In this document: positions 31,494 through 53,596 of the stretch, one piece after another | How positions within the stretch are numbered: position 1 is the stretch's first letter | Layout of the letters: every line of letters starts with the position of its first letter | Program-made: the position numbers and the translations under genes | Source: an uncultured Acidobacteriota bacterium | Lineage (GTDB): Bacteria > Acidobacteriota > Thermoanaerobaculia > UBA5066 | Direction: 5' to 3' | Assembly (NCBI GenBank): GCA_963821435.1 | Contig: CAWGDR010000011.1 | Coordinates: forward strand, 185,277-249,276 | DNA length: 64,000 nt | Notes under the pieces: model-generated | Database searches by the model: none | What the model was told of the DNA's origin: nothing | The model's input: only the letters and a program-made list of their open reading frames with translations

Positions 31494-31507
31494 GGCATAC
31501 TTCTTGA
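31494..31507 (+). promoter_or_regulatory. candidate sigma-54 (-24/-12) promoter upstream of pilin gene 1
   Basis: GGCATACTTCTTGA has GG-N10-GA geometry. It shares GGCA-N6-CTTGAAT with the site upstream of pilin 2. The -12 element is TTGA rather than the consensus TTGC. Confidence 0.3.
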
Positions 31508-31528
31508 ATCCGCGTGATCAGGGAAGGC

Positions 31529-32023
31529 ATGCATGTCGTGAGGGCTCGGCGGGGATTCACGCTGATCGAGATGCTGATCGTCGTCGCGATCATCGGGATC
31601 ATCGTCGCCATTTCCGTGGCCAACCTCATAAGCGCGGTCCAGCGGGCCAAGCAGAGGCGCTCGATGGGAGACATGCGGACGGTGGCCCTCGCCGTCGAGA
31701 GCTTCACGACCGACTTCAACCGCTATCCGGCGGCGGCCGGGTTCGGCCTCCCGTCGGGCCTGAGCCTCCCGACGGCCACGCTGGGCGACGTGGTCTCGCA
31801 GCTCGCCCCGACTTACCTCAGGACCGTTCCGCTCCTGGACGGCTGGAACTCCTGGTTCACCTACTCGGTGAGCGAGGAGCGGTACGACTACGCGATCCGT
31901 TCGAATGGCGCGGACGGGGCGCCCGAGTCGGCGCCCCCGTTCGGTCCCACTCATCGCTTCGACAGCGACATCATCCTCGTGGACGGGATGTTCGCGCAGT
32001 ACCCCGAGGGGGTGCAGAAGTGA
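31529..32023 (+). CDS. GspG/PulG-like prepilin (type IV pilin-like) 1
   Basis: MHVVRARRG/FTLIEMLIVVAIIGIIVAI is a class III signal peptide with G-1, F+1 and E+5. It is followed by QRAKQRRSMGDMRTVALAVESF. The protein is a paralogue of the next gene. Confidence 0.85.
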   Translation: MHVVRARRGFTLIEMLIVVAIIGIIVAISVANLISAVQRAKQRRSMGDMRTVALAVESFTTDFNRYPAAAGFGLPSGLSLPTATLGDVVSQLAPTYLRTVPLLDGWNSWFTYSVSEERYDYAIRSNGADGAPESAPPFGPTHRFDSDIILVDGMFAQYPEGVQK

Positions 32024-32141
32024 GGGGAGCGGCGACAATGGATGGATGGGACGCAGTCGAGGAGCCGACAAAATTTGTCAGGTCGAGCGTCACGCGGACG
32101 GATTCTGTCCGTAAGTGTTGCAGGAACAGAGCTTGAACATC

Positions 32142-32157
32142 TGGCAACGAACTTGAA
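32142..32157 (+). promoter_or_regulatory. candidate sigma-54 (-24/-12) promoter upstream of pilin gene 2
   Basis: TGGCAACGAACTTGAA: TGGCA at 32142-32146 and TTGA at 32153-32156 (GG-N10-GA). It sits in a 156-bp lower-GC intergenic spacer, 24 nt upstream of the AGGAGG-ATG start. Confidence 0.4.
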
Positions 32158-32179
32158 TACCCAAGGCAGGAGGTTTTCA

Positions 32180-32677
32180 ATGAGACTCAATCGGAGCAAG
32201 AAGGGTTTCACCCTCATCGAGCTTCTGATCGTCGTCGCCATCATCGGCATCATCGTGGCGATTGCGATTCCGAACCTGCTCAACGCCATCCAGCGGGCGA
32301 AGCAGAAGAGGACGATGGGCGACATGCGGACGATCGGCACCGGTGCCGAGGCGTACGCGGTCGACACGAACCGGTACCCGTCGGCGGCCGGTTATTCGCT
32401 TCCGTCGGGCATGAGCATGCCGACGACCACGCTCGGCGGCACCAACATGCCGAACCTGGTCCAGCCCACGTACGTCCGGGTGCTGCCGCTCCTGGACGGG
32501 TGGAACTCGTGGTTCATGTACACCACGACCGGTCAAGACTACATCATCCTCTCGAACGGCAAGGATGGCACAATTGACGGCGGCGCCCAGCCCATCGGTC
32601 CCACGACCGACTTCAACCAGGACATCATCTTCGCCGACGGACAGTTCCTCCAGTTTCCCGAAGGAATCCAGAAGTAA
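32180..32677 (+). CDS. GspG/PulG-like prepilin (type IV pilin-like) 2, probable major pilin
   Basis: AGGAGG RBS precedes the ATG at 32180. MRLNRSKKG/FTLIELLIVVAIIGIIVAIAIPNLL carries the class III signal. A strong terminator lies immediately downstream. Confidence 0.85.
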   Translation: MRLNRSKKGFTLIELLIVVAIIGIIVAIAIPNLLNAIQRAKQKRTMGDMRTIGTGAEAYAVDTNRYPSAAGYSLPSGMSMPTTTLGGTNMPNLVQPTYVRVLPLLDGWNSWFMYTTTGQDYIILSNGKDGTIDGGAQPIGPTTDFNQDIIFADGQFLQFPEGIQK

Positions 32678-32717
32678 CCGGCGACATCGGCCGGGCCTCT
32701 TGCCGGCCGGGAGAACG

Positions 32718-32747
32718 GGCCCCCGCCTCGCGGGGGCCTTTTCTTTT
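32718..32747 (+). terminator. Rho-independent terminator after pilin gene 2
   Basis: GGCCCCCGC-ctc-GCGGGGGCC is a 9-bp GC stem, followed by TTTTCTTTT. A second hairpin (GGCCGG...CCGGCC) lies at 32689-32708. Confidence 0.7.
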
Positions 32748-32791
32748 CGGGGCCCGGATCGCTCCGGGCGCTTCCGTAGAATCGGCCGAAG

Positions 32792-35050
32792 ATGAAGGCG
32801 CCGCTCCTGGGAGCCCTTCTCGGGCTTGTTCTCGGTGGCGCGCTCCTTCTTCCGGCGGCGGTGTCGGGCGGGGTCCCGGCCCGCGGCGACCTGCCCGATT
32901 TCTTCTGGCCGATGAAGGCGTACACGGCCTCGCGCTGGGCGACCGGGAACGTGCCGCTCTGGAACCCGCTCTCGGGATGCGGAGAGCCCTGGCTGGCCCA
33001 GCTTCAGCCGGGGGCCCTCTTCCCGCCGGACCTGCTCTTCCTCCTCCCGGGCGCCGCGGGACCGATGGCGTCGCTCGCGTTCCATCTCGCGGTCGCCGCC
33101 GCCGGGATGGCCGCATGGCTCTCGAGCCTCGGCCGGTCGCGGCTCGCGTCGCTGGCCGGGGCGGCGGTCTTTGCGGGCGGGGGCGCGTTCGTCTCCCTGA
33201 TTCCGGTCCTCAACAACTTCACGACCGCGGCCTGGCTCCCGTGGATCTTTCTGGGAGCGCAGCGCGCCGTCCGCGGGGAGGGCGTGCCGGTTCTCGGCGC
33301 CTCGACCGCGCTCGCGTTTCTCGGCGGCGAGCCGGCCCTTGCGGTGGCCGGAACGCTGGCCGCGGCCACGGTTTCGTGGGCCGCCCGTTACGAGGAGCCC
33401 GGTCTCGCCGGCGTCGTGCCGGGCCGCGCCTTCCGGCGGCTCGCCGCCGGCGTCCTCCTCGGGACCGGGTTGTCCGCCGCCGCGGCCCTGCCTTTCGTCG
33501 AGCTCGTCGTCGCCTCGGGCCGCTTGACGAACGTCACGCGGGAGGAGGCGCTCGCCCGGGCCGTCGGCTTCTCGGACCTCGCCGACTCGGTCTGGCCGCC
33601 TCCCGCCTCGATGACGGGGGGCGAGTCGGCCGGGCGAGGCGGCTACCTCGCCACGCTGGCGATCGGACCCCTCGCGTTCCTGCTCGCCGCCGGCGGAGCG
33701 GCAGGTCTCGAGGACCGCCGCCGCTTCCTCCGCGGGCTCCTGGCCGTCGCGGCCCTCGGCCTCGTCCTGTCGCTCGGGGCCCGGGGAGGGCTTGCGGCGC
33801 TGCTCTGGGACAGCGGCCTGGTCCGGGGCCTCCGCTACCCGGCGCGGTGGATCGTCTTTCCGCACCTCGTCCTCGCCCTCCTCGCGGGCGCCGGGGTCGA
33901 CGGGTGGCGCCGGGAGAACGCCGATGGCCGGGAGCGGCTCTTCGGTCTCGCGACGCTGCTCGTCGCGGCGGGCCTCTTCGCCGCGGCCCTCCTCGAGCCC
34001 GGGCGCCGGGTCGGCGACGGCGTGGCGCGCGCCGCCGCCGGGTTCGCGGCGGCGGCCGGCGGAGCGGTCCTGCTCCGTCTCTGGCGGAGGCCGGGGGCGG
34101 GGGCGGAGCCGCGGGGCGCTGGTCTGCTCCTCGTCCTGGTCGCCGCCCCCCTTCCCTGGTTCGCCGCCGCCGCCGTCGCCGCGGCTCCCGCGCGCGATCT
34201 CCTCACGCCCGCCCGGATCGCCGGCGGTTCCCGCCCTGGCGACGCCGGCCGACTCCTCGTGGCGGTCCACGACCGGCATCTCCTCTCCCGCTTCGTCACG
34301 TCGGGGCCCGACACCTCGCTCGTCGCGATGGTCCGCCGCGCCCATGCCTCGATGGCCGGCTACGGGAACCTTCGGTCGGGGGTCGCGACGGCCGGCTCCG
34401 CCTCGCCGATCCAGGACCCGCGCCGCGCGCGCCTTCTGGGAGCCGCGCTGGGCGGCGGCGACGCCCCCGCTCTCCTCTCGCTCGCCGACGTCCGCGGGAT
34501 CGTCACCCCGTATCCGACGACGATCCCGGGAGCGCGCCTCGCCGGGCGGGAAGAAGGCGTCCTCCGGTACGCGCTTCCGGCCCCGGCCGGCCGCGTCCTC
34601 TTCGTCCGCGAGGCCCGGGTTGCCGGAGACGACGAGGTCTGGCGGGCCCTGACGACGCCCGGATTCGAGCCCGACGCGGTGGGGTTCGTGGCAGGAGCGG
34701 AGGCCCCGCTCCCGCCGCCGCGTCCGCGGAACGGCTTCTCCGTGGCCCGCGTCGTCCACGACGAGCCCGAGGCTCTCGAGGTCGCCACCTCGACGTCCGA
34801 GCCCGGCCTCCTCGTCGTCACCAGGAGCTGGGACCGGGGCTGGACGGCGAGCCTCGACGGGAAGGCGGCGCCGCTCCTTCGCGCCGACCTCGCGTTCCAG
34901 GGGGTCGTCGTCCCCGCGGGGGAGCACGTCGTCCGGCTCGTCTACGCCCCCGCGTCGTTCCGGACCGGGTCCGCGGTGTCGGCCGTCTCCCTCGTCGTCC
35001 TCCTCGGCCTCGTGCTCGCGGGGCGGCCGCCGCTGGGGGCCCGAAGGTGA
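32792..35050 (+). CDS. YfhO-like GT-C polytopic membrane protein (putative glycosyltransferase)
   Basis: Intact 752-aa ORF. The N-terminal loop DFFWPMKAYTASRWATGNVPLWNPLSGCGEPWLA precedes many TM helices. The C-terminal periplasmic domain plus final TM (LLVVTRSWDRGWTASLDGKAAPLLRADLAFQGVVVPAGEHVVRLVY...) is typical of YfhO proteins. Confidence 0.6.
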   Translation: MKAPLLGALLGLVLGGALLLPAAVSGGVPARGDLPDFFWPMKAYTASRWATGNVPLWNPLSGCGEPWLAQLQPGALFPPDLLFLLPGAAGPMASLAFHLAVAAAGMAAWLSSLGRSRLASLAGAAVFAGGGAFVSLIPVLNNFTTAAWLPWIFLGAQRAVRGEGVPVLGASTALAFLGGEPALAVAGTLAAATVSWAARYEEPGLAGVVPGRAFRRLAAGVLLGTGLSAAAALPFVELVVASGRLTNVTREEALARAVGFSDLADSVWPPPASMTGGESAGRGGYLATLAIGPLAFLLAAGGAAGLEDRRRFLRGLLAVAALGLVLSLGARGGLAALLWDSGLVRGLRYPARWIVFPHLVLALLAGAGVDGWRRENADGRERLFGLATLLVAAGLFAAALLEPGRRVGDGVARAAAGFAAAAGGAVLLRLWRRPGAGAEPRGAGLLLVLVAAPLPWFAAAAVAAAPARDLLTPARIAGGSRPGDAGRLLVAVHDRHLLSRFVTSGPDTSLVAMVRRAHASMAGYGNLRSGVATAGSASPIQDPRRARLLGAALGGGDAPALLSLADVRGIVTPYPTTIPGARLAGREEGVLRYALPAPAGRVLFVREARVAGDDEVWRALTTPGFEPDAVGFVAGAEAPLPPPRPRNGFSVARVVHDEPEALEVATSTSEPGLLVVTRSWDRGWTASLDGKAAPLLRADLAFQGVVVPAGEHVVRLVYAPASFRTGSAVSAVSLVVLLGLVLAGRPPLGARR

Positions 35051-36213
35051 ACCCCGCCGACGTCATCCACGCCGGGGCGTTCGCCCTCGGCGCGATCGTC
35101 GGGTCCTTCGCCAACGTCTGTATCCACCGGATGCCGCGCGGCGAGTCGGTGGTGACGCCGCCGTCGCGCTGCCCGGCCTGCGGAAAGCGGATCGCGTTCT
35201 ACGACAACGTTCCGATCCTCTCGTGGCTCGTCCTCCGCGGCCGGTGCCGGAGCTGCCGCGCGACGATCCCGGTCCGTTACCCGGTCGTGGAAGCGACGAT
35301 GGCGGCCGGCTTCCTCGCGGCGTCCCTCCTGTGGGGGGCCTCGGCCGCCACGCTCGCCGCGATGCTCCTCGGCGCGGCGTCGCTCATCCTCGTGGCGACC
35401 GACCTCGAGAGCCGGATCCTCCCGGACGAGGTCACGCTCGGGACCCTCGGCCTGGCGCTTCTCCTCGCCGTCGTCCGCGACGCCTGGGGGCGGCCGGCCG
35501 GCCAGCCGTTCCGCGTCGGGACGAGCGTCACGATGGAGGCGATCCTCGGGGCCGCCCTCGGCGCCGGCTTCCTCCTCGCGGCGCGGGCCCTCTACCTCCG
35601 GCTTCGCGGCATGGAGGGGATGGGGCTCGGAGACGTCAAAATGATCGCGATGATCGGCTCCCTGACGGGCCCCGCCGGCGTCCTCGTGGCGCTTTTTCTC
35701 GCCTCGCTCTCCGGAGCCGTCCTGGGCGGCGTCGCCGCGGCGGTCCGGCACGTCGGCTGGGCCCTGTCGTTCCGCCGCGCTCGGGCGGGGGGAGACGCTC
35801 CGGCCGCGGAGGCGCGGCGCCACGGCCTCCTCCTCGACCGGGAGGGGAGCGTCCTCGCAGCGTCTCTCCGCGTCGCCGGGATCCCGGGGTTCGCCGGGAC
35901 CGGCGAGAGCGCGGCCGGGTCGGCGGGCGCCGCGCGTCCGTTCGCGGCGTTCGTCCGCCTCGCCCGCCGCCGCGCGGGGCAGGGGCGATCGACCGGGTTC
36001 GGACGGCTCGCGCTCGACGACGGAGAGTACTTCCGCGTCCTCGCGGTGCGCGCGGTTCCCGCGGAAGAAGGGCTTCTCGTCCTGGTCTCCCGGGCCGACA
36101 TTCCGTTCGGCGTCTTTCTCGCCGCCGGCGGGCTCGCGGCGTTCGCCTTCGGCCGTGCGCTCCTCGCCCGCCTCGCCCCGGACCTGCCGCTCCCGGGGAG
36201 CCTCCTGCCGTGA
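35047..36213 (+). CDS. pilD: prepilin peptidase (A24 family) with an approximately 115-aa insertion before the last TM
   Basis: GTG overlaps the yfhO stop (GTGA). Zn-finger CPACG...CRSC, catalytic Asp motifs LVATDLESRILPDE and GLGDVKMIAMIG, and the terminal IPFGVFLAAG are present. An extra segment spans about aa 236-350. Confidence 0.85.
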   Translation: MNPADVIHAGAFALGAIVGSFANVCIHRMPRGESVVTPPSRCPACGKRIAFYDNVPILSWLVLRGRCRSCRATIPVRYPVVEATMAAGFLAASLLWGASAATLAAMLLGAASLILVATDLESRILPDEVTLGTLGLALLLAVVRDAWGRPAGQPFRVGTSVTMEAILGAALGAGFLLAARALYLRLRGMEGMGLGDVKMIAMIGSLTGPAGVLVALFLASLSGAVLGGVAAAVRHVGWALSFRRARAGGDAPAAEARRHGLLLDREGSVLAASLRVAGIPGFAGTGESAAGSAGAARPFAAFVRLARRRAGQGRSTGFGRLALDDGEYFRVLAVRAVPAEEGLLVLVSRADIPFGVFLAAGGLAAFAFGRALLARLAPDLPLPGSLLP

Positions 36214-37704
36214 GCAGCCGGCCGTTCGAACGGGAGGTCCGGCTCGCGGTGGTCGGCGGTGTCCTTTTCCTCCTCCTCCTCGCGGGCTTGTCGCTCGTCG
36301 TCCTCAGGAACGTCGTCGCATGGGGGGAACGGGAGGCGATCGCGCTCGCCGAGGCGCAGGACCCGGACGGTGGTGGAGAGGCTGCAGGTCTCCGGAGATC
36401 CGTCGCTCTCCCTCGGCGGCGACGCCGGCGTCGCGAAGCTGCTCGCCGACGGCCGGGCGCGGTACGCCGCCCTCTACGACGCCGAAGGGAATCGGCTCGG
36501 CGAGGCGGGCTTCCTTCCCGACGCGGCGCTCGCTCCGCGGAAGCTCCCGGCGGAGCGCCGTCCCCGGGGCGACGGCCTCCTCGCGCGCGACGACACGCAG
36601 GTCTCCCCGCCGGGCCTCGCGCGTCTCCGCCGGATTCTCCGGGGGGCGGCGGCTCCTGGCCGTCCTCTACGACGGGTCGGATTTCGTCGAGGCCCGGCGG
36701 AACGGGCGGATCCTGTCGTGGGTCGTCCCCGTCTCGGCCGTCGATCCTGACCGTCCTCCTCGTCCCCTTCTTCCGGCGGCTCATGCGGCCGATCGACGCG
36801 CTCACCGCGACCGCGAAGGGGGCGGGCGAGGTCGTGCGCGGGCCCGAGTCGCCGCACGACCCCCCGGGGCGCGACGAGACGGAGCGCGCCCTCCTGACCT
36901 TCCAGCGGACGATCGAGGCGCTGAAGCGCCGGACGGCCGAGCTGGAGGAGATGCGCGGGCGCGAGACAGCGGCGCGCCGACGACCTCGCCCTCCGCGCGG
37001 AGACGCTCGTCGTCTCGGCGAGCCGCCTCGAGCGGGAGCTCTCCTCGCAGCGCGAGCTCGCGCGCCTGGGCGAGATGTCGGCGGGCATCGCCCACGAGTT
37101 CCGGAACGCGACGGCGACGATCCTGGGCTACGCGCGCCTCGCGGCCCAGACGGAGGAGCCCGCCGCCCGTGCGCGGCACCTCGCGGCCATCGGGGCCGAG
37201 GCCGAGCACGTCGCGCGCGTGACCGGGGACTTCCTCTTCTTCGCGCGGCCCGAGAGGCTCGAGCTGCTGCCGACGGCGCTCGGACCGCTCCTCGCGGAGA
37301 TCGCGGCGGAGCAGAGGCAGATCACGCCGGGCGTCGCCGTCGAGGTCGGAGGGACCTTCGCGACCGCCCCGCTCGACGCCGCCCTCTACCGGAGGGCGAT
37401 CGTCAACCTCCTCCGGAACGCCGTCGAGGCGGCCCGATCCCGGGTGGTCCTTCTCGGCGAGGGGGAGGAGGGCGGGGTGGCCCGGGTCGCCGTCGAGGAC
37501 GACGGCGCCGGCGTGACGCCGGACGCCCTCCCGAAGCTCTTCGTTCCCTTCTTCTCGACGAAGGAAGGGGGAACCGGGCTGGGGCTGGCGCTCGTCGCGA
37601 AGATCGCCGCGCTCCACGGCGGCTCGGTCTCCGCGGAGCGCTCGGCCCTCCTCGGGGGCGCGCGCTTCGTCCTGTCGGTGCCGGTCGCGCCTCCCGCCGC
37701 CTGA
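36210..37704 (+). CDS. sensor histidine kinase (PilS/NtrB-like), about 4 frameshifts
   Basis: GTG overlaps the pilD stop. N-terminal TM LAVVGGVLFLLLLAGLSLVVL, a second TM ILTVLLVPFFRRLMRPI, and a HAMP-like coiled coil. HisKA is EMSAGIAHEFRNATATILGY and HATPase is NLLRNAVEA...VEDDGAGV...FFSTKEGGTGLGLA. Confidence 0.75.
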
Positions 37705-38823
37705 TCAGCGGGGCGGGCGAGGTCCCGGCGGCCGGGGCCTTCGGAGCGGCCCGCCGCTTCTCGACGAGGCCCTTGAAGCTCTCCTTGTCGAGCGCCTTCT
37801 CGAACGCCTCGTCGGGCGCCACGAGGTCGGCCACGACGAGGTCCGCGAGGTACTGGTCCATCCCGATCATCCCGGCCCCGCGCCCCGTCTGGATGAGCGT
37901 GTTGATCATGGCCGTCTTCCCCTCGCGGATGTTGTTGCCGAGCGCCGAGGAGGAGCGGAGCACCTCGAACGCGGGGACGCGCCCTCCCCCCTTGCGCTTC
38001 AGGAGGACCTGCGCGACGACGGCCTTCAGGACCTCCGCGAGGACGGTGCGCGTCTGCTCCTGCTCCTCGGCGGGGAAGGAGTCGATCAGCCGGTCGACGG
38101 CTCTTGGCCGACGAGTTGGTGTGAAGCGTGCCGAAGACGAGCAGGCCGGTCTCGGCGGCCTGCAGGGCGAGGCTCATCGTCTCGAGGTCGCGGAGCTCGC
38201 CGACGAGGACGACGTCCGGATCCTCGCGCATCGCCGCCTTGAGGGCGCCGGCGAACGTCGGCGTGTCGAAGCCGAGCTCCCGGTGCGTCATGACCGACTT
38301 CTGCGGCATGTGGACGAACTCGACCGGGTCCTCGATCGTGATGATGTGGAAGGCGCGCGTCCGGTTGATCCAGTCGATGAGCGCCGCGAGCGTCGTCGAC
38401 TTGCCCGAGCCGGTCGGCCCCGTGACGAGGATGAGCCCGCGCGGGAGCCGTGCCACGTTCGCGACGACGGGCGGGAGGCCGAGCTCCTCGACCGTGAGGA
38501 CCTTCGGCGGGATCATCCGGAGGACGGCGCCGGAGCCGTGCTCCTGCCGGAAGACGTTGACGCGGAAGCGCGCGACGTCCCCCATCCCGTAGGCGAAGTC
38601 GGTGTCGCCGGTCGACTTCCACTCCTGGTAGAGGTTCGGCGGGGCGATCGGGGACGAGGAGTCCCTCGAAGTCGTCCTCCGTCAGGGTCCTCCATTTCAG
38701 TCTCTGGAGGTCGCCGTCCACCCGGACGATCGGCGGGGAGCCGACGGCGAGGTGGAGGTCCGACGCCTTCTTGTCCACGACGATCCGGAGGAGGGTGTCG
38801 ATCCGGTTCTCGACGTGCGTCAT
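37705..38823 (-). CDS. pilT: type IV pilus twitching-motility/retraction ATPase PilT (about 2-3 frameshifts; 3' end uncertain)
   Basis: MTHVENRIDTLLRIVVDKKASDLHLAVGSPPIVRVDG..., then GDVARFRVNVFRQ, Walker A GPTGSGKSTT, ITIEDPVEF, DPDVVLVGELRD and LVFGTLHTN. The third frame gives AVDRLIDSFPAEEQ...ALGNNIREGK. The ATG overlaps the upstream stop (ATGA). Confidence 0.8.
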
Positions 38824-41514: not shown

Positions 41515-41530
41515 GGGCACGGAGTTCGCT
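41515..41530 (+). promoter_or_regulatory. candidate sigma-54 promoter for the minor-pilin/PilY1 operon
   Basis: GGGCACGGAGTTCGCT compared with the consensus TGGCACG-N4-TTGCW. GG is at 41516-41517 and GC at 41528-41529 (exact N10 spacing), 21 nt upstream of the ATG at 41550. Confidence 0.5.
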
Positions 41531-41549
41531 AAGATGGTGTCGAGTTCTT

Positions 41550-42200: not shown

Positions 42201-42202
42201 CG

Positions 42203-44048: not shown

Positions 44049-44050
44049 CG

Positions 44051-44695
44051 ATGAGAAGGAACCAGAACCTGACGCGGCCGACGCGGGGCAGCGCGCTCGT
44101 CACGGTGATCCTCGTGGTCCTGATCCTGACGGTCGTCGGGGTCGGCATCGCCTACTTCACGCAGATGGAGGACCGGCTCTCGGGGAACAGCCGCGTGATG
44201 CGCGCCGCGTTCTACGCGGCGGACGCCGGCATCCGGAAGGGGGAGACCGTCATCTCCGGCGTCAACTCCGCCGGCCTCCCGCTCGACACGATGCTGCAGT
44301 ACCTCGGGGGGACGCCCCCCCTGAACCCGCCGGGCGGCGGGTGGCAGGCGGTCATCCTGAACGCGCAGGACCCGGAGGACTCCACGACCAAGGAGTTCCT
44401 CAACATGCCGATCACCCTGCCGGGAGCGGTCGTGGACCGGGGGGACTACTCGCTCTACGTGAGGAACAACCAGGAAGAGACCGATCCCTTGGCTTCGCCG
44501 ACGGTGGACAAGGACAACATCATCAACCTGATCTCCGTCGGACGGATCGTCGCCTTCGGGGGCAACTACACGAAGATCCTGGAGGAGCAGCTCGTAGTCG
44601 GCTCCCCCGGCGTACACGGTGGTGGGCAGAAGGAAATCGACTCCGGCGGCACCGGCTCCGGCCAGAAGAGCGTCAATGCCGGAGGCCACCCGTGA
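44051..44695 (+). CDS. PilX-like minor pilin (PilX N-terminal domain)
   Basis: [26 protein letters not shown]...[14 protein letters not shown] matches the PilX_N pattern. Confidence 0.65.
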
Positions 44696-44708
44696 CTGTG
44701 AGGACGAA

Positions 44709-47700
44709 GTGACGTCACCCCGACTCCACCTGCGGTTTCCCGTGAGGCTGAGGAGGGCCTGCGCCCTCCTCCTCGGCTTCATCCTCGCGGCCGGAAGCGA
44801 GTGGCCCCTCTTCGCGGCGGAGGGCTTCGACCCGCTCCGCCAGATCAGCCTCCAGGTCGTCCGCGCCAACCTCGACATCGTCCTCGACAACAGCACGTCG
44901 ATGCGCCTCGACGTCTTCGGCAACGAGCTCCGAGACCGGGAGGACTCGATCGGGCGCCTCGTCTGGTACGCGACCTGCGCGGATCCGAACCCCGGCCCGA
45001 CCAACACGCCGACGGTGACGCCGACGGTGACGGTGACGGAGACGCCGACGGTCACCCCGACCGAGACGACGACCGCGACGCCGACGCAGACCCCGACGAT
45101 CACGGCGACCATCACGCCGTCGACGACGCCGACCTACACCGAGACGGCCACTCCGACGGTGACGCCGACCGTGACGCCGACCTTCACCTTCACGACCACG
45201 CCGTCGGTGACGCCGACGGTTACGCCGACCTACACGCCGTCCCAGACCGCCACGGCGACCACGACGTCGACCCCGTCGATCACGCCGACCATCACGATCA
45301 CGACGACGCCGTCGCGGACGCCGACGGTCTCGGCGACGTCCACGGCGTCGCGGACGCCGACGGTCACACCGACCTGGACGGTCACGAGGACCCCGTCGCG
45401 GACGCCGACCGTGACCCCGACCGGCACGGCCACGCGGACCCCCAGCCGGACGCCGACGCGCACCGCTTCCAGCACGCCGACGCGGACGCCGACCGTGTCC
45501 CCCACCGGCACCGCCACGAGAACGCCGACCCGGACCCCGACGCGGACGCCGACGCGCACGCCGACGCGGACGCCGTCGATCACGCCGACCTTCACGCCGA
45601 CGAACACGGGCGTGCCGACCGCCACACCGACGATCACGCCGACGATCACCCCCACCTCGACGCCGACGAACACGCCGACCTGGACGGCGACCGGGACGCC
45701 GACGCGGACGCCGACGATCACGCCGACCTGGACGGCGACGGGGACGGCGACGGTGACGCCGACGTCGACGCCGACGAACACGGCGACGCGGACGCCGACC
45801 ATCACGCCCACCTCCACCTGGACGAACACGCCGACGGTGACGCCGACGGTGACGCCCACCGCCACCCGGACGAACACGCCGACGGTGACCCCCACCTCAA
45901 CGGCCTCGAGCACGCCGACGGCGACCCCGACCGTCACGCCGACGCCGACCGAGACGCCGACGCGCACTCCCAGCTACACCCCGACGATAACCGCGACCTA
46001 CACGGCGACGAACACGCCGAGCGCGACACCCACGGCGTCGCCCACCCGGACGGCGAGCAACACGCCAACCTCGACGCCGACCACGACGCCGTCGAACACG
46101 CCGTCGAGGACGCCGACGGCGACGCCGACGCCGACCGAGACACCGACCGTCACGCCGACCGCGACGCGGACGAACACGCCGACCAACACGCGGCCGGGCG
46201 GCAGCGAGTTCCGGCCGCCGCTTCCGAAGGACGTCCCCCCGCGCCCGCCCGAGCAGTGGGCGCTCGCCGCGCCGCGCCCCGTCCCGCTCTCCGCGCCGGG
46301 AGCGGTGGCCGCGCTCGCGACGGCGATGCTCGCCGAGCCCCACGGCGGCTCCGAACGCCCGTCCGCTCTGGACCGGGGTCGGCGCGAGCCTGCCGGAAGG
46401 CCTCCTGCCGCGCGAGCCGCACGGGCCGCGCGGGATGAGCGCCGCCGTCCTGCCGGCCGTGGCCGCGATCTTCCAGGCCCCCCCGACGACACCGACGGCC
46501 GTGGCGAATCCTGGCTGCGCGACCTGGACGTACCACCTCCACTTCGACCTGCCGTCGCGCCTCGCCATGATGAAGAACGCGCTCGGCAACTCGCGTCACG
46601 CTCGTCACGAGCTTCACGGCGCCCGGTTCCGGGGCGCAGTCCGACTGGCCGGACGTGACGCTGGCGCCGAACTGGAACTACCCGCTCCGGACGCTCCCGG
46701 ACTACGACCACGGCGGGTCGATCACCTACACCGTCGGCTTCGACCAGGGGGGCGTGCAGAACGACTGGGCCTGGACGGTCCGGTGGGGCTTCGACGTCTT
46801 CAACGGCATCATCTACCGGGACGACCCGGGGATCCCGTTCACGGCCTACGACAGCACGACGGACATGTCGGGGAACTCGATCCCGATGGTCACGGGCCGG
46901 CCGATCCTCGGGACGACGCCCGGCTCGTGGACCGTGGAGCCGCCGCAGAACGTCATCGGCAAGAACAAGGACCTCGTGAACTGGGGCCTCCTGAAGTACT
47001 ACGACATCGCGCCGACCATCGACTCCACGAACTGCACGTATCCCGACAACTACGTCCGGGTGGTCCCGATCGACCCCCTCGACACGGGAGACGTCTCCGC
47101 GATCGAGACCGCGATGCAGGTGGCCTACTTCGGCGGGCTCAACATCAAGCCCCGCGCCGGGACGCCGAACAAGGGTGCGCTCGACCAGGACAAGGCCTAC
47201 TTCCCGACGCTCTTTGCGAGCGACCCGAAGAACAAGTGCGACCGGACCTATGGCGTCATCCTCGCGACCGACGGGCTCTCGAACACCTGCAACCCGCCCG
47301 GCTCCCCGGGCGACCCGCCCGTTCCCTGGTTCTCCCCGGACCAGGGGTGCGCGATCAACCCGGCCACCGGGCTGGAGGAGTGCGCCGGAGGGTACGCGTC
47401 GGGCTCCTCTCCCGTCTGGTTCAGCCCGGGCGAGGAGTGGGTCAGCCCCTGCCTCGGGCGGTTCGGCATCGACGCCGGCTGCGCCGACCCGGCGAGCCCC
47501 CTCTTCGGGCGCTGCTGCGACCAGTACTCGAAGGCCAACGGCTCGGGCTACGACTGCAACGCCGACTACGTGACGTCGTACACGCTCTTCCCGCCGGGCT
47601 CGTCCGAGGAGATCTACAACCTCAACATGACGGTCGCGGGCCGGACGCTGGCCCCGGTGCAGCCACGCACGTTCGTCGTCGGGATAAGCCCGACGGTCGG

Positions 47701-49876
47701 CCGGTGCGAGCTGAACTACACGGCCTACCGCGGCCGGACGGACGCCAGCAGCCCGAACAAGGACGCCGGCTTCGACACCGACAACGACCCGCGGATCCCG
47801 AAGACGACCGAGGACGGCACGACGCCCGACCGGTACGGCGCGGCCCTCGGGGCGAAGAAGGACTGGGCGTTCTTCGCCACGGACGCGAAGGCGATGGCGA
47901 AGGCGTTCACGACGATCGTCGCCGCCACGGCGACGGGCGACTACACGACGGCGCCGCCGGTGTCGGGCTCGGTCCTCTCGCTCGGCAACATCGTCCTCCT
48001 CCCGTCGTCGGAGTTCCCGACCTGGAAGGGGCACATGTACGCCATCGACTCGACGAAGAACCCGGGAGACGTCGGCTACCTCAGGTGGGACGCCGGCAAG
48101 GCCCTGTCCGACCCGGCCGACCCCGGCTACGTGGCGCCCGGGAGCCGGAAGATCTACACGTGGGATACCTCGAACGCCCTCGTTGAGGTGATCGACGCGA
48201 ACCAGGACACCCTGGCGAACCTCGCGGGGCTTCCGAACCCGAGCGGATTCGACACCTCGGCCTTCAACACGAAGGTCATCGACTTCATCCGCGGCAACGA
48301 CGGGACCAAGACGAGCACCGGCCGCTTCTGGCGCTTCGGCCCGCCGATCAACGCGACGCCGGCGGTCATCGGACCTCCCGAGATCTACAAGCAGAGCAAG
48401 CTGCCCGACCACAAGCCGTTCGAGGGGGCGTACAAGACCCGGACGGCGCTGGCGTGGGTCGGCGCGGACGACGGAATGCTGCACGCCTTCAACTTCACGA
48501 CGGGCGCCGAGGTCGTGGCGATCATCCCGCCGAACCTCCTCAAGCCGCAGGTCGACCTCTACAACAACTACCTCGCCGGCGAGTCGCTGACGGGCCAGAA
48601 CGTCGACCTGACGAACCACATCTGGGGCCAGGCGAACTCGCTCCGCTACTACGACGTCTGGGACGGCTCCGAGTACCACACGATGGGGTACCTCACCGAA
48701 GGTCCCGCCGGCACGCTCCTCGCCGCCCTCGACATCACGCATCCCTCTCCGACCGATTCGAACTACGCCGATTTCGGCGGCGATCCGGTGAGGGTCGTCT
48801 GGACGAAGTCGCAGGCCGACTTCGCCCCCGTGCCGAGCCTTTTCAACACCTGGAGCGTCCCGGCCACCGCCGCCGCCGCGTACCTCGACTACCGGCTCTT
48901 CTTCGGGCAGGGGCAGAACACCGCCAGCACCGCCGCCGCGCAGGTGGACGCGAGCTTCTTCACGGTCGACTCCTGGAGCGGCGCGCAGATCGGCTCGACG
49001 AAGACGCTCGCGAAACTGGCGATCCCCGCGCCCTGGGTCGGGGAACAGTCGTTCGCCGACTCGGTCTTCTTCCAGACAGGCGCGCCGGGCTACTTCGGCG
49101 ACAACTTCGCCAACCTCGCCCTCCAGGCCGACCTGAACGGGCGGATCTGGTTCAACTACGACGCGTCCGCGGCGTCCGGCTTCCCGGACGTAGCGATCGG
49201 CATCGACGCCACCGCCAAGGCCGGCCAGTCCCAGCCCCTCTACTATCCGCCGGCGGTGAGCGGCCTCGGGAAGAGCGGCTGCCAGGTCTACGCGTTCGGC
49301 AGCGGCACGGCGTACGAGCAGAGCCCGACCGTGACCGGGCGTCAGATCGGCACCTCGCCCAACTTCATCCCGCAGTTTTACCTGGCCGTCAACACCCAGA
49401 CGGCGCCCGTCTTCAACACGACGGTCCCGAACACGCAGATCGTGACCGGCGCCTTCTCCTCGTTCCAGAAGCCGGCGGGCTCTCCGGACTACCCGGGCCC
49501 GCTGGGCGTCCGGACGATGCTGACCTCGTCGCCGTTCCTTCTCGTCCCGGGGGACGGGAAAGGCGTGGCGAACGCCCTCTTCCTCCTCTTCGACCCCGAC
49601 GTCGGCTGCAACGGCTGGTCGTATGTCGCCATCGTCTCGTTCAACCTGACCGCCTGCGCGTCGGACTTCTCGGTCAACCCGATCACGAAGGTGGACGTCT
49701 TCGCCGCCGGTGCGGGTGCGGCGTCGGGCTTCGCCCTCGCGGGCACGGAGATCGTCGTCGCCAAGTCGGGCATCGGCAAGGGGGCTTCGGCGGGTCTCGT
49801 CAAGCCGGGCGTGAACATCACGGCCTATCTCGGTCTCGGAAATATTGCGCCGAACTTCTGGAGAGAGCTGAAATAG
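44709..49876 (+). CDS. giant PilY1-like tip adhesin: signal peptide, vWA domain split by an approximately 400-aa Thr-rich insertion, C-terminal PilY1 beta-propeller (at least 2 frameshifts between 46190 and 46655)
   Basis: Signal [23 protein letters not shown] lies at 44886-44900. The (T-X)n tract spans 45001-46190. The vWA then resumes ([13 protein letters not shown]..., [24 protein letters not shown]). The PilY1 C-terminal domain shows [18 protein letters not shown] and [29 protein letters not shown]. The start (GTG 44709 versus ATG 44676) is uncertain. Confidence 0.75.
45001..46190 (+). repeat. in-frame low-complexity coding repeat (ACG-CCG-ACN-NNN)n encoding (Thr-Pro-Thr-X)n
   Basis: About 1.19 kb in which nearly every second codon is Thr ([20 protein letters not shown]...[19 protein letters not shown]...[13 protein letters not shown]). 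The antisense strand reads (VGV)n, which explains the spurious ORF at 45230-45967. Confidence 0.9.
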
Positions 49877-49884
49877 GGGCTGAC

Positions 49885-49911
49885 GCCGCCGGGGCCGCGC
49901 GCCCCGGCGGC
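49885..49911 (+). other. GC-rich 11-bp hairpin between the pilY1-like gene and the next pseudopilin gene (no U-tract)
   Basis: GCCGCCGGGGC-cgcgc-GCCCCGGCGGC. It is not followed by a T-run, so it is not a canonical intrinsic terminator. It could be an mRNA-stabilising or processing structure. Confidence 0.3.
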
Positions 49912-49935
49912 CGCCCGGCCTAAGATGAGGCCGGG

Positions 49936-51189
49936 ATGCGGACGTCGCGGAATTCAACCGGGAGGAGGAAGCCGGCCGGCTCCCTCCTCCGCGGCTTCTC
50001 CCTTCCCGCGCTCCTCGCGACCCTCCTGGCCTGCGTCGTCCTCGTCGCGGCGGCCCTCCTCGTCGTCGACCGGACCACGCGGATCCGTCCGGCGGCCTCC
50101 GCCCCGAAGCTCAAGACGTCTCTCGACGCCGCGAGCCGGGCCCTGGCACGCGACCTCGAGGCGGCTGCGGGAGGCCTCCTTCCGACGCGAGAGGCGGTCC
50201 GGCCGCTCGCGGACAACTTCGAGGGGACCCGGCTCTTCACGAACGTCTTCGGCCAGGCGACGCCGGTTCGGGCCGGAACGGACATCCTGGGACTCCGGGG
50301 GGTCCTCCGGGCGCCCGTGCTGCGTCTCGACGGGGGAGCGCCCGCGGAGTTCGGCCAGCCGAGCGCCGCGCCTCTCCGGATCACGGGAGCCCCGGGACCC
50401 CGGAACGAAGCCCTCGTCGCGACGGCGGCGAGGCTGCGCGCCCGGGACCTCGCCGGGCCGGCCCGGCGCTTTTTCCTCGTGGTGGATGCGGCGGGCCTCT
50501 GGGCAGTGGCGCGGGTCACGGCCTTCGACGCGTCGGGGCTTGACGGCTGCGAGGGGGGGGTCGGGGGATCGACCGCCCGTCCCTGCGGCCTCGGGCTGAC
50601 GCTCGACTTCACGGATCCTGACGCCGTCGCCGGGAATCCCGGAGGGAACCCTGCGGCGGCCTCGCGCCTCGGCCCCCTCGTGGCGGCGGGGCTCTACGAC
50701 GAGGTCGCTTTCTTCGTCGCCCTTGGCCCAAGCGGCCGCCCCCCGGACTACTTCGTCGTGAACGACCCCCCCTCCATGGCGAACCCCCACCCGTTCCTCG
50801 CCGCGGCGGAGGCGGCGGGCGCCGGGCGCTGGGAGGTAGCGCGGGTCGCGGACGACATCGAGAACCTCCAGGTGGCGTTCGGTCTGAAGGGGGCGGACGG
50901 GGGCGAGGTTTGGGTGGGGGAGCGGCCCGGAGCGCCGGTGCCGGCGGACGGGATCGGGCCCGATGTCGGGATTCCGGCGCGGCTGAAGGCGGTTCGCTGC
51001 GCCCTGGTCGCGATCGGACCGCGCCGGAGCGGAGCGGGCCCTGCGGATTTCGCCGCGGCGCTTCCCTTCAACGCGCCACCGGCCGGCGAGGGATCGACGC
51101 CCGTCGGCTGGGCGTCCGTGGCCCGGAACCAGATCGCCGTCGCGCGGGAAAGCCGAGTCGTGGAGGTGCGATTCCCCGCCTCCCCCTGA
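49936..51189 (+). CDS. PilW-like pseudopilin (second copy)
   Basis: LLRG/FSLPALLATLLACVVLVAAALLV is a prepilin-like leader that lacks E+5 (P-A-L-L-A). The internal VADDIENLQVAFGL block resembles the PilW block. Confidence 0.55.
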   Translation: MRTSRNSTGRRKPAGSLLRGFSLPALLATLLACVVLVAAALLVVDRTTRIRPAASAPKLKTSLDAASRALARDLEAAAGGLLPTREAVRPLADNFEGTRLFTNVFGQATPVRAGTDILGLRGVLRAPVLRLDGGAPAEFGQPSAAPLRITGAPGPRNEALVATAARLRARDLAGPARRFFLVVDAAGLWAVARVTAFDASGLDGCEGGVGGSTARPCGLGLTLDFTDPDAVAGNPGGNPAAASRLGPLVAAGLYDEVAFFVALGPSGRPPDYFVVNDPPSMANPHPFLAAAEAAGAGRWEVARVADDIENLQVAFGLKGADGGEVWVGERPGAPVPADGIGPDVGIPARLKAVRCALVAIGPRRSGAGPADFAAALPFNAPPAGEGSTPVGWASVARNQIAVARESRVVEVRFPASP

Positions 51190-51227
51190 GGACGAGGGGT
51201 ATGATTTGGTGTTCACCGGAGGTGTCC

Positions 51228-52178
51228 ATGCGTCGCCTTCTTCCGTCGACGATCCTTGCGACCGCCCTCCTCTTGGGCTTCGGGGCGGTTGCGGACGATG
51301 TCATCCTCAAGGACGGCCGGGTCATCCGGACAGTCGGACCTCCCATGCTCAAGGGACGCATGGTCATCCTGAAGACGGCCGACGGCCAGCTCCTCTCTCT
51401 CCCGGCGGGGGAGATCGACCAGGAGAAGACGGCGGCCGCCCGTGTCGCGCCGACGCCAGCTCCCGCTCCGACGGCGACGCCGAACCGCCCTCTGACGCCC
51501 GCCGAGGCCGCCCGCCTGACGAAGGGGAAGAAGGCCACCGTCGTCCTGACCGATGACCAGGTCGCGGGAGGAGAGCTCGCGGGAGCAGACCCCGAAAAGA
51601 AGGAGGCCGGTGAAGAGCGTGTCGACGTCGCCAACGCGTCGGCGACGAAGACCAAGGAGGGCTACGCGTTCACCGGGTCGCTCGTCAACAGCGGAAAGGT
51701 GGATGTCTCGGGCGTGGGGGTCACGATCGAGGCGATCGGCCCGGACAACAAGACGATCGTCTCGGGGTTCGGCCAGGTCGCGAAAGACAACCTGGGTCCG
51801 GGCGAGAAGAGCGCGTTCACGGCGGCCCTGGCGACCGACGCCGAGGCGGCCACGTTCCGCTACGTCCCGCAGTGGCAGGTCAAGATGGGCGTGAAGGGCG
51901 CGAGCGGAAGCGGATCGGGCCCCTCGGGTCCCGCAGGGGCCGCGGATTCGAGCGGCATCGTCCCGACGCCGACGCCCGGCGTGATCCCGTCGCAGGTCGG
52001 TGAAAAGGCGGACAGGCTCCCCGGCGACAAGGCGGCCGCGCCGCCGCCGACGCCACTGCCGCGGCCCGACATCGCGCCGCAGTCGCCGAACGCCGCGATC
52101 GGCGCCCCCGACAAGCCGGGGGGGACGTTCATCCCCAAGCCGACCGGCGACCAGCCGAAGCCTCCGTCGGGGAACTGA
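51228..52178 (+). CDS. secreted protein with FxLYD-like beta-sandwich domain and Pro-rich tails
   Basis: Signal MRRLLPSTILATALLLGFGAVA. The central region YAFTGSLVNSGKVDVSGVGVTIEAIGPDNKTIVSGFGQVAKDNLGPGEKSAFTAAL resembles FxLYD domains. The C-terminus is P/G-rich. Confidence 0.45.
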   Translation: MRRLLPSTILATALLLGFGAVADDVILKDGRVIRTVGPPMLKGRMVILKTADGQLLSLPAGEIDQEKTAAARVAPTPAPAPTATPNRPLTPAEAARLTKGKKATVVLTDDQVAGGELAGADPEKKEAGEERVDVANASATKTKEGYAFTGSLVNSGKVDVSGVGVTIEAIGPDNKTIVSGFGQVAKDNLGPGEKSAFTAALATDAEAATFRYVPQWQVKMGVKGASGSGSGPSGPAGAADSSGIVPTPTPGVIPSQVGEKADRLPGDKAAAPPPTPLPRPDIAPQSPNAAIGAPDKPGGTFIPKPTGDQPKPPSGN

Positions 52179-52234
52179 ACGGGAGACGGCGGTGCCGAAA
52201 CCGCTCGCGCCCTAGGGACGGGCCCCGCCACGCC

Positions 52235-53584
52235 ATGCCGGCCGAGATCCTGCTCGTCGAGGACCGGGAGTCGCTCCGCGCGATGCTGGCGGAGACTCTC
52301 GAGCGGCTCGGCTACGGCGTCGAGGCCGTCGCGGCCGGCGACGAGGCCGTCCGGCGGCTGCAGGCCGGCCGCCGCTACGCCCTGGTCCTCACGGATCTGA
52401 AGCTCCCCGGGGCGGACGGGCTTGCGGTGCTCGCCGCCGCCCTGGCGGCTGATCCCGGGCTGCCGGTCGTCGTGTTGACGGGATTCGGCACCGTGGAGAC
52501 CGCGGTCGCCGCGATGAAGGCGGGCGCGGCGGACTTCCTCAGCAAGCCGGTCGACCCGGACCTCCTTCAGCTCCTCGTGGCGCGGCACGTGGCGGCCCGG
52601 CGCGGCGCGGTCGCGCACGCCCTCCTCGCGGCCGAGGCCGGGCTCTCGGGCATGCCGGCGATCGTCGGCTCCTCGCCGGCCCTCGCCGAGGCGCTCGAAC
52701 GGATCCGGCGGGCCGCCGAGACCGACGTGACCGTCGTCTTGACCGGCGAGTCCGGGACGGGGAAGGAGCTCTTCGCGCGCGCCCTCCACGCCCTTTCCCC
52801 CCGTTCCGCGGGGCCGTTCGTCCCGGTCAACGTCGCGGCAATCCCCGAGGGGCTCGTCGAGAACGAGCTCTTCGGGCACGAGCGGGGCGCGTACACGGGC
52901 GCCGTCGAGCGGCGGGCCGGCCGCTTCGAGCTGGCGGACGGCGGGACGCTCTTCCTCGACGAGATCTCCGAGCTGCCGGCGCCCTCCCAGTCGAAGTTCC
53001 TTAGGGTCGTCGAGGAGCGGCAGTTCCACAGGGTCGGCGGGACGGTGCCGGTCTCGGTCGACGTCCGGATCGTCGTCGCGACGAACCGGGACCTCACGGC
53101 CCTCGTGAAGAGCGGCGCGTTCCGCGAGGACCTCTTCTACCGGCTCGAGGTTTTCCCGGTCCGGCTTCCGCCTCTCCGCGCGCGCAAGGAGGACCTGCCG
53201 GCGCTCGCGCGGTCCTTCGCCGAGAGCGCCGCGCGCCAGATGCGGAAAAAGGCGCCGGAGTTCTCGCCGGCGGCCCTCGCGCGCCTCGCCGAGCACGACT
53301 GGCCCGGGAACATCCGCGAGCTGAAGAACGTCGTCGAGCGGGCCGTGATCCTCTCCCGGGGAGAGACGATCCGCCCGGCCGACATCGTCCCCGGCCTCCC
53401 GGGCGAGACGGCGAGCCCCCACCCGTCGCTCGACGGGGCTCTCGACGACGTGATCGAGAGGTGGAAGCGGGCGGGGGAGACGGCCCGGATCCGGCGTGCG
53501 CTCGAGGAGGCGGCGGGCGACCGCGCCAAGGCGGCCGAGGAGCTCGGCATCCCGGCGCGCCGCCTCGCCCAGCGGATGAAGGAG

Positions 53585-53596
<12 letters not shown>
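52235..53596 (+). CDS. sigma-54-dependent two-component response regulator (NtrC/PilR family)
   Basis: Intact 453-aa ORF. The receiver is LVLTDLKLPG...KAGAADFLSKP. The AAA+ domain has GESGTGKE, GAYTGA (a variant of GAFTGA) and DVRIVVATNRDL. The C-terminus is a Fis-type HTH (AAEELGIPARRLAQRMKELG). Confidence 0.9.

Follow-up and report, generated by a model that had tools for sequence, protein, structure and literature searches.

A cluster of type IV pilus genes occupies positions 31.5-53.6 kb of the window analysed here, a 64-kb stretch of about 72% G+C from contig CAWGDR010000011.1 (assembly GCA_963821435.1) of an uncultured acidobacterium of the class Thermoanaerobaculia. Two tandem pilin genes are followed by the gene of a large membrane enzyme with the C-type glycosyltransferase (GT-C) fold, by pilD and by a histidine kinase gene. 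A pilT gene and a gene fusing HEAT repeats to PilT (HEAT::PilT) are convergent to them, and a divergent operon then encodes minor pilins, a PilY1-like protein, two further proteins and a response regulator. All the genes named in a preliminary description of this DNA, made from the sequence alone, were found in this region.

The lists of open reading frames (ORFs) of the window were crowded with shadow frames, and genes were placed by the G+C content of codon positions together with a codon model and then scanned with Pfam and NCBIfam. Frameshifted genes were missed by filtering on third-position G+C and by the codon model. The domain scan reached 31 kb upstream and 10 kb downstream of the locus, with partial coverage of stretches fragmented by frameshifts (e.g., 56.1-61 kb). 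Comparison loci were labelled L001 and so on; L003 served as the intact reference for PilT (370 aa) and the kinase (496 aa), and related loci were examined with flanks of 10 kb on each side. The control set consisted of 77 unrelated PilT loci of GTDB genomes, taken from among the matches listed when genome contigs were searched with a profile of the HEAT::PilT alignment.

Major-pilin candidates and prepilin peptidase

Pilin 1 (31530..32023, + strand) and its paralogue pilin 2 (32180..32677, +), which are about 55% identical, both match Pfam N_methyl and T2SSG and carry a class III signal peptide. In pilin 1 this peptide reads MHVVRARRG|FTLIEM and the globular domain has the GspG fold. The G|F-x-x-x-E signature was recognised by N_methyl or TIGR02532 in both pilins and in minor pilins 1 and 2. 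The two proteins had been called GspG-like prepilins, which agrees with their domains; with the NCBIfam GspG equivalog model (TIGR01710), however, they score 70.5 and 71.0 bits, below the cutoff of 88.85. Compared with PDB sequences, pilin 1 gives full-length alignments to PulG (1.2e-9) and to PilA4 of Thermus thermophilus (3e-7), a GspG-fold protein of ~125 aa that is the major pilin of the wide pilus (PDB 6xxd). The similarity to PilA4 is distant, and unlike that system the locus has two tandem paralogous pilins. A pilin loop of the form LPSG(L/M)S(L/M)P(T)xTLG contains several Ser/Thr positions, some of them kept across an alignment of 105 unique family members. Judged by its sequence, pilin 1 is a candidate for the major pilin.

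The prepilin peptidase gene pilD (35047..36213, +) was identified by Pfam A24_N_bact (117 bits) and Peptidase_A24 (58 bits). GTGA overlaps couple the GT-C gene to pilD and pilD to the kinase gene, and the arrangement of tandem prepilins, GT-C gene and pilD with these overlaps was as first described.

The YfhO-type GT-C enzyme

The gene at 32792..35050 (+) encodes a protein of 752 aa that is assigned to the YfhO family of GT-C glycosyltransferases by Pfam, an AlphaFold (AF2) model and Foldseek, and that is a candidate pilin-modifying enzyme. It scores 40.9 bits with Pfam YfhO (PF09586; gathering score 28.5), the alignment being confined to the C-terminal 64 aa, and weak matches to NCBIfam PgfM1 and PgfM2 were also located at the C-terminus; YfhO paralogues of L161 align to the Pfam model over residues 96-516. 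The motif D33-L-x-D36-F-F-W-P-x-K, which includes K42, stands directly after the first transmembrane (TM) segment, and D33 and D36 are invariant in 34 homologues. A conserved acidic motif in the first extracytoplasmic loop, as is characteristic of the GT-C superfamily, is therefore present. According to the AF2 model (pLDDT 87, pTM 0.91) the protein has the GT-C fold. The top 11 Foldseek matches in the PDB were all GT-C enzymes that use polyprenyl-phosphate sugars, including AftD (1.6e-7), EmbC, EmbB, ArnT, STT3, Pmt4 and AglB, and identity to these in the structural alignments was 12-15%. A profile of the family had no significant match among PDB sequences, and no YfhO structure was found in the PDB by sequence search. 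The 220 homologues recovered apparently all belong to this clade, and in every locus the gene is placed after the pilin genes and before pilD, even where identity falls to about 30%. A second YfhO-family paralogue occurs in L113 (15284-17722) and L161 (2232-4562), and UDP-sugar dehydrogenase and epimerase genes were found in L146 (15239-17554).

The likeliest role of this enzyme would be the glycosylation of pilins on the periplasmic face of the membrane, because of its analogy with TfpW and TfpO of Pseudomonas aeruginosa and with YfhO-like Pgf enzymes; a polyprenyl-phosphate sugar would then be the donor and a pilin the acceptor. TfpW is a GT-C arabinosyltransferase encoded beside the group IV pilin gene of P. 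aeruginosa Pa5196, and TfpO/PilO and PglL perform the O-glycosylation of pilins. As with TfpW, a large polytopic GT-C enzyme is encoded directly downstream of a pilin gene, and the best structural matches of the locus enzyme, AftD and Emb, are mycobacterial arabinofuranosyltransferases. It differs from TfpW in belonging to the YfhO family and in being translationally coupled to PilD, and the likeness is one of context and fold, not of sequence relatedness. PgfM1 and PgfM2 of Streptococcus mutans are GT-C enzymes of the YfhO family. The locus protein resembles these and the YfhO proteins of Bacillus and Listeria in its Pfam YfhO match, its weak PgfM1/PgfM2 matches and its fold, but it comes from a diderm acidobacterium and stands in a pilus-gene context. 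YfhO of Bacillus and Listeria acts in teichoic acid glycosylation (PMC5836110).

Another GT-C enzyme of the window, at 19937-21832 (+), is an STT3/AglB-like oligosaccharyltransferase (NCBIfam archaeo_STT3, 2e-27, below the cutoff), which hints at a capacity for protein glycosylation in this bacterium.

The two PilT-class ATPases

The HEAT::PilT gene (38820..41336, - strand) is intact and encodes 838 aa, in which about 480 aa of HEAT repeats (HEAT_2, 102 bits) lie N-terminal to a complete PilT (T2SSE, 155 bits). It stands upstream of the short pilT gene (37700..38823, -; ~370 aa, 3' end uncertain, two 1-nt insertions) on the same strand, and an ATGA overlap couples its stop to the start of short pilT. 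The fusion was thus as first described, whereas the accompanying pilT, which had been taken as canonical, is split over three frames in the window. With the insertions removed, short PilT scores 433 bits and HEAT::PilT 429 bits with NCBIfam pilT_fam (TIGR01420, cutoff 319). The two score 138 and 150 bits, respectively, with the PilB model (cutoff 676), and 143-149 bits with the GspE model (cutoff 630). Similarly, when residues 483-832 of HEAT::PilT were compared with whole chains in the PDB, the scores were 335 bits for Geobacter PilT, 332 for P. aeruginosa PilT, 229 for PilU and ~111 for PilB; the short-PilT orthologue of L002 (P0088) gave 350 bits with P. aeruginosa PilT, 229 with PilU and 105 with PilB. 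Walker A, the Asp box, Walker B with the catalytic Glu and the PilT-type A..(L/N)IREGK are kept in both proteins. By these sequence comparisons both ATPases are of the PilT class and neither is of the extension type.

When the HEAT domain alone was used as the query, collinear fusions of ~830-845 aa were found in at least 10 clusters (50% identity). This domain may serve as a docking or regulatory module. In L006 (1-4649) the HEAT::PilT and PilT pair lies about 5 kb from a cluster of CheW, response regulator, HEAT-repeat protein and CheR genes, with unrelated genes between them, which is a possible hint that HEAT domains may link chemosensory output to the motor.

The His boxes of the pair, at ~38156 for short PilT and ~39242 for HEAT::PilT, are unusual. 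Generic PilT-type ATPases of unrelated control loci have both His-box histidines in 96 of 99 cases. Short PilT, on the other hand, is without H223 (Geobacter numbering) in all 14 pairs compared (the window and 13 loci), with L, V or T instead, the window sequence being ETG-L-LVFGTLHT (H223L); in distant lineages it is also without T221, the inter-chain partner of H230. HEAT::PilT keeps H223 and T221, but H230 is replaced by S or N in 6/14 (L006, L007, L008, L011, L013 and L152). Column-wise comparison also revealed an Arg-to-Gln change near the nucleotide site in distant HEAT::PilTs and a Glu-to-Gln change at an open-interface position in close ones. The same upstream/downstream pattern was present in tandem PilT pairs without HEAT repeats from two Verrucomicrobiota and Desulfomonile (L071, L077, L065), which may point to a wider, unrecognised class of paired PilT motors. 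In the window, HEAT::PilT looks catalytically complete by its residues and only short PilT is atypical. H230 of PilT contacts the gamma-phosphate (McCallum et al. 2019; PMC6858323), and H229A in P. aeruginosa PilT abolishes twitching (PMC6858323). Because of the complementary His-box pattern and the ATGA coupling, we infer that the two partners could be functionally interdependent, possibly in a mixed ring.

Comparable arrangements are the PilT/PilU pairs and MXAN_6705/6706 of Myxococcus xanthus, the latter being tandem PilT paralogues of which one has a longer N-terminus (PMC13584747, PMC6762196). They share with the locus two adjacent, co-oriented PilT-family genes, one of them N-terminally extended, and interdependence would be expected. 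However, both locus ATPases are nearer to PilT than to PilU, and the N-terminal extension of HEAT::PilT, unlike that of MXAN_6705/6706, is a folded HEAT solenoid of ~480 aa. Moreover, all five PilT paralogues of M. xanthus contain the hallmark Walker and Asp/His box motifs (PMC13584747, PMC6762196), whereas the locus partners show a complementary loss of His-box residues.

Minor pilins, PilY1 and the proteins beyond

The operon divergent from HEAT::PilT has the order fimU-pilV-pilW-pilX-pilY1, the PilV and PilW matches being sub-threshold. Its four minor pilins (41550-44695) were as first described. Minor pilin 1 (FimU/GspH-like; 41550..42200, +) has N_methyl and a weak GspH match, and minor pilin 2 (PilV-like; 42203..42751, +) has N_methyl and a weak PilV match. 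Minor pilin 3 (PilW-like, 439 aa; 42729..44048, +) matches PilW weakly over the whole profile (E 0.019) and has orthologues with N_methyl, and minor pilin 4 (PilX; 44051..44695, +) matches Pfam PilX_N with 47 bits.

The PilY1-like tip protein (44673..49876, +) would have about 1730 aa if read through, with a signal peptide, a vWA-like DxSxS start, a Pro/Thr linker and a beta-propeller region. The linker, ~400 aa rich in Thr and Pro, is encoded by an imperfect (ACGCCG)n array of 1.2 kb at 45006-46191 and occurs in most lineages, L011 being without it. With Pfam T4P_PilY1 (cutoff 28.1) the C-terminus in the window reaches 15 bits, while the L011 orthologue, 38% identical to the window protein, passes with 39.6 bits. 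The protein had been given as a PilY1-like protein of 1700 aa; in L001 and L004 the gene is indeed a single ORF of ~1620-1830 codons, but the window copy is spread over three frames (44673 to ~46170, 46513-46620 and 46595-49876). A long Gly/Val-rich ORF runs antisense to the array (45230-45967, -). Opposite-strand gene calls over the repeat in public assemblies (L002, L004) look like the same artefact, by which PilY1 would be mis-split there.

Next to PilY1 are encoded a conserved protein of 417 aa (49936..51189, +; orthologues in L001, L004 and L007) and a secreted FxLYD-like protein of 318 aa (51222..52178, +; orthologues in L007, L011, L012 and L152). The former has one N-terminal hydrophobic segment (RGFSLPALL, no Glu5) and could possibly be a further pseudopilin. 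Both genes had been reported, as a second PilW-like and an FxLYD-like protein, and are present, but the matches behind these names are sub-threshold: E 0.05 for PilW, and 22.3 bits against a cutoff of 23 for NCBIfam FxLYD_dom.

Kinase, regulator and sigma-54-type promoters

The sensor histidine kinase, for which a PilS-like role is proposed, is encoded at 36210..37704 (+). It has HisKA and HATPase_c domains and the GTGA overlap first described, but the gene is broken by four 1-nt insertions, and only with these removed does it give a full kinase. Unlike the six-TM PilS of P. aeruginosa, it has a periplasmic sensor domain and two TM segments. The sigma-54-dependent response regulator that had been noted at the end of the operon (52235..53596, +) is of the NtrC family, with Response_reg, Sigma54_activat (228 bits) and HTH_8 domains and the GAYTGA motif, and may have a PilR-like role; an orthologue takes the same position in L007. 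The locus kinase and this regulator would form a pair.

Sigma-54-type -24/-12 elements, all on the + strand, were found at three places of the locus. The element upstream of pilin 1 (31494..31508) is GGCAT-N5-CTTGAA, with an equivalent GGCAC-N5-CTTG in L002, L003, L004 and L009; that upstream of pilin 2 (32142..32157) is TGGCAACGAACTTGAA, kept at -38 to -43 in the same four loci; and that upstream of the minor-pilin operon (41515..41530) is GGGCACGGAGTTCGCT, with CGGCACGAAGCTCGCG (GAACC in L009) at the same place in L001, L004 and L009. Elements of the form GGCAC-N5-(C/T)T(G/C)N thus stand 35-45 nt ahead of each pilin gene and of the minor-pilin operon and are kept in five to six lineages. The window-wide count of the -24/-12 motif (GG-N10-(T/C)G) does not exceed chance (6 vs 6.2 expected), and the support comes from position and conservation. 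An NtrC-type enhancer-binding protein and a -24/-12 element before the pilin genes, as in PilS-PilR-type regulation, occur together at the locus, and the predicted elements would fit control by its sigma-54 activator and kinase.

Frame breaks in pilT, the kinase gene and pilY1

Relative to the intact orthologues of L003, pilT has 1-nt insertions at 38654 and 38109 and the kinase gene at 36358, 36621, 36744 and 36968, and removal of these six restores both proteins to full length. The same +1 jumps were found in two unrelated ABC-transporter operons at 1.5-2.8 kb and 14.5-15.4 kb (jumps at ~1.8-2.3 kb and 14.7-14.9 kb). At least 12 single-base insertions were counted in the 64 kb, as is typical of long-read assemblies that have not been polished, and related contigs with long-read style names (L002, L009, L010) have genes split at other positions. 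Identity to the orthologues is 75-90% for the fragments, the same level as for intact genes nearby, and the fragments contain no in-frame stops. A Logan contig of run ERR11523661 is identical to window positions 32302-36090 and ends before the affected stretch. The breaks in pilT, the kinase gene and pilY1 are probably insertion errors of the assembly, because all six aligned breaks are +1, housekeeping ABC genes are broken alike and the orthologues are intact. Any gene-level reading of this contig should take such insertions into account.

Distribution of the gene order

Homologues of HEAT::PilT numbered 87; where the source was named, they were 55-96% identical in Thermoanaerobaculia and ~35% in Vicinamibacteria-type lineages. 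The core order (GT-C, PilD and kinase, with PilT and HEAT::PilT convergent) was found in at least 24 public contigs, namely L002-L005, L009-L011 and 17 metagenome contigs of the Joint Genome Institute, and contigs that extend far enough also show the pilins upstream and, past HEAT::PilT, the minor pilins with PilY1. It is also kept where the GT-C enzyme is only 30-35% identical to that of the window (L152, L160, L161, L165, L172). The HEAT::PilT and PilT pair is common to 31 loci and persists alone in more distant Acidobacteriota (L006, L008, L012, L013) and in L019. The modules of the cluster also occur apart: in L007 the motor, tip and regulator genes stand beside the same SelA/TPR/TldD flank and the pilin module is absent, and in L146, L104 and L113 the genes for pilins, GT-C, PilD and kinase are present and those for the motors are not. 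L146 is another large contig of the metagenome of L007. The gene order is therefore widely conserved in Thermoanaerobaculia-type Acidobacteriota and common in nature. The preliminary description had not recognised it as described; the full-text literature search likewise found no description of the gene order, of HEAT::PilT, of YfhO with pilins or of Thermoanaerobaculia pili, but rare, as the synteny comparison makes plain, it is not.

Flanking genes

The locus is flanked by a Cus-type RND efflux operon and by genes for an ATP-grasp ligase, SelA, TPR proteins, TldD/PmbA and biotin carboxylase. The ligase (PGM1/BesA-like; 29925..31463, -) matches Pfam ATP-grasp_IQCH and PGM1_C, its score with the NCBIfam BesA-like model (169 bits) being below the cutoff. 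Its gene is divergent from pilin 1 across a gap of 66 bp, and this intergenic region is shared with the sigma-54-type element of pilin 1. It stands beside pilin 1 in about 20 related loci (L002, L003, L004, L009, L010 and ~15 metagenome loci) and is a syntenic neighbour whose membership in the pilus system is uncertain.

The heavy-metal efflux operon (22894-28920, +), directly upstream of the pilus cluster, encodes an OEP protein, a CusB-like protein with an HMBD domain and a CusA-like ACR_tran protein. Farther upstream, an ORF of 906 aa (8773-11493, +) joins an MFS transporter domain to a 7TMR-DISM_7TM sensor domain, which could be a real fusion or a read-through caused by an assembly indel. 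The genes at 3815-6351 (+) encode an actin/MreB-like ATPase followed by a SPOR-domain protein of 483 aa and are unconvincing as a PilM/PilN pair. The actin-like protein (3815-4834, +) was rejected as PilM, as it matches MreB_Mbl (3e-20) rather than PilM_2 (E 0.008, sub-threshold) and lies 27 kb away beside the SPOR protein.

Discussion

The locus contains the class III pilins, the A24 peptidase, the PilT-family ATPases and the minor pilins with PilY1 that characterise a type IVa pilus (T4aP), and is without PilB, PilC, PilMNOP and PilQ. Among the genes called in the 64 kb, with partial coverage of the fragmented stretches, Pfam revealed no T2SSF/PilC, secretin/PilQ, PilM/N/O/P or PilB/GspE-class ATPase; the absence of these proteins that had been pointed out was thus borne out, and no standard cluster flanks the locus within the window. 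Genes of T4aP are typically dispersed. In P. aeruginosa they form five loci, with pilA-pilBCD, fimU-pilVWXY1Y2E, pilTU, pilSR and pilMNOPQ at separate places. Of the 77 unrelated control loci, taken from among the matches listed, only 8-9 have a PilB-like ATPase at a distance of 10 kb or less from pilT. No acidobacterial PilB was recovered among the scanned loci, and for the PilT of a 2.18-Mb contig (ena:ERZ25039489 contig_21930) the matches listed were all orthologues of at least 68% identity. Because pilT and pilB are usually far apart in the control and the genes of a T4aP are commonly scattered, it is to be expected that the locus lacks pilB, pilC, pilQ and pilMNOP; this is ordinary and not evidence for new energetics, and pilB, pilC and pilMNOPQ would lie elsewhere in the genome. 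We consider it probable that the locus is the pilin and modification, retraction, priming and regulation part of an ordinary T4aP, joined into one conserved supercluster in Thermoanaerobaculia-type Acidobacteriota. Of the two possibilities first put forward, an accessory module serving a machine whose genes lie elsewhere is the better supported, all parts being standard T4aP accessory components.

The locus shares with the T4aP of P. aeruginosa the kinds of pilins, PilD, the order of the minor-pilin/PilY1 operon, a neighbouring pair of PilT-family ATPases, and a kinase with the type of sigma-54 regulator that drives the pilin promoter there. The differences are that four of those modules are united within 22 kb, that pilA and pilD have no pilB and pilC next to them, and that HEAT::PilT takes the place of PilU as the second ATPase.

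In such a pilus, the NtrC-type regulator, presumably phosphorylated by the locus kinase, would activate the sigma-54 promoters of the two pilin genes and the minor-pilin operon, and PilD would cleave and methylate the prepilins. At the periplasmic face of the membrane, the GT-C enzyme may use a polyprenyl-phosphate donor to attach a sugar to the pilins and possibly also to PilY1, at its Pro/Thr linker. The complex for priming and for the pilus tip would consist of PilY1 together with the FimU/PilV/PilW/PilX-like pilins. HEAT::PilT and short PilT, which are coupled in translation, may power or regulate retraction, with the HEAT domain docking or regulating, and the extension ATPase, platform, alignment complex and secretin would be supplied from elsewhere in the genome.

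Several observations weigh against this reading. A PilB-like ATPase was not found within 10 kb of ~45 related loci, nor were PilB, PilC or PilMNOPQ in any cluster-bearing genome, where the search covered the locus and its 10-kb flanks; in those flanks, the Pfam-annotated relatives and a few spot checks gave no PilC. The pilins are GspG-like, and a pseudopilus role is formally possible. Short PilT has a non-canonical His box, the case for pilin glycosylation is built from adjacency and fold only, and the six frameshifts of pilT and the kinase gene lie within 2.3 kb while the flanking genes are free of them, which would fit a recent inactivation too.

If that last point is taken at face value, the locus could be decaying in this organism, pilT, the kinase gene and pilY1 being real pseudogenes and the pilus no longer retracted or no longer made; at least eight frame breaks are present in these three genes. 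However, the uniform +1 insertions, the same jump in unrelated ABC-transporter genes, the lack of additional amino-acid divergence and of in-frame stops and the similar splits elsewhere in the long-read style assemblies L002, L009 and L010 are contrary to decay, which we regard as quite unlikely. The missing PilB, in the ~45 loci as in the window, together with the strict pairing of the ATPases and their unusual His boxes, could also be explained by a self-contained filament of non-canonical energetics, as had been proposed, in which one PilT-class ATPase (e.g., HEAT::PilT) drives both assembly and retraction like CpaF in Tad pili, with an unrecognised platform and no PilB at all. This proposal found no positive support. 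Both ATPases are unambiguous members of the PilT family, far below the PilB and GspE cutoffs, and no PilC/GspF-like protein, secretin or alignment protein, which an ATPase alone cannot replace, is encoded among the genes called in the window. Since T4aP genes are normally scattered and pilT of the control loci is usually distant from pilB, such a filament is very improbable.

Least probable of all, and hardly to be expected, is a pseudopilus module like that of a type II secretion system (T2SS), in which the GspG-like proteins would be a periplasmic piston and not a surface pilus. The pilins match Pfam T2SSG, their best NCBIfam model is GspG and PulG aligns over the full length; on the other hand, they fall short of the GspG equivalog cutoff, the major pilin PilA4 of Thermus shares the GspG fold, and PilT-class ATPases, a PilX_N minor pilin and a PilY1 beta-propeller are features of T4aP. 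As the scan of the called genes in the window also gave no GspC, GspD, GspE, GspF, GspL or GspM, the T2SS reading was rejected. Because the pilins are below the GspG cutoff and stand together with PilT, PilX_N and PilY1, the evidence favours pilin 1 as a T4aP major pilin over a T2SS pseudopilin.

An extension of the preferred reading as part of an ordinary T4aP is that the two ATPases act as an obligate pair, in a two-component and possibly hetero-hexameric motor for retraction, each of them an incomplete PilT and the HEAT solenoid an input or docking module, and that the locus includes the first YfhO-type GT-C pilin glycosylation system. This extension is tentative and, on balance, unlikely, although less so than the alternatives above.

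The HEAT::PilT/PilT pair and the YfhO-type transferase are unstudied, and two components of the locus, the pilin-coupled YfhO-family GT-C enzyme and the paired PilT paralogues, are worth experiments. Public gene calls split PilY1 at the Pro/Thr repeat and name the GT-C enzyme 'hypothetical'. The paired PilT paralogues could show how accessory PilT-like ATPases cooperate, a question that is still open for PilT/PilU, and the pilin-coupled GT-C enzyme, if its proposed role is true, would extend pilin glycosylation to a new enzyme family. If the locus is indeed part of an ordinary T4aP, its layout would simply be the way in which type IV pilus genes are arranged in a large acidobacterial class that has been little studied, which would help annotation.

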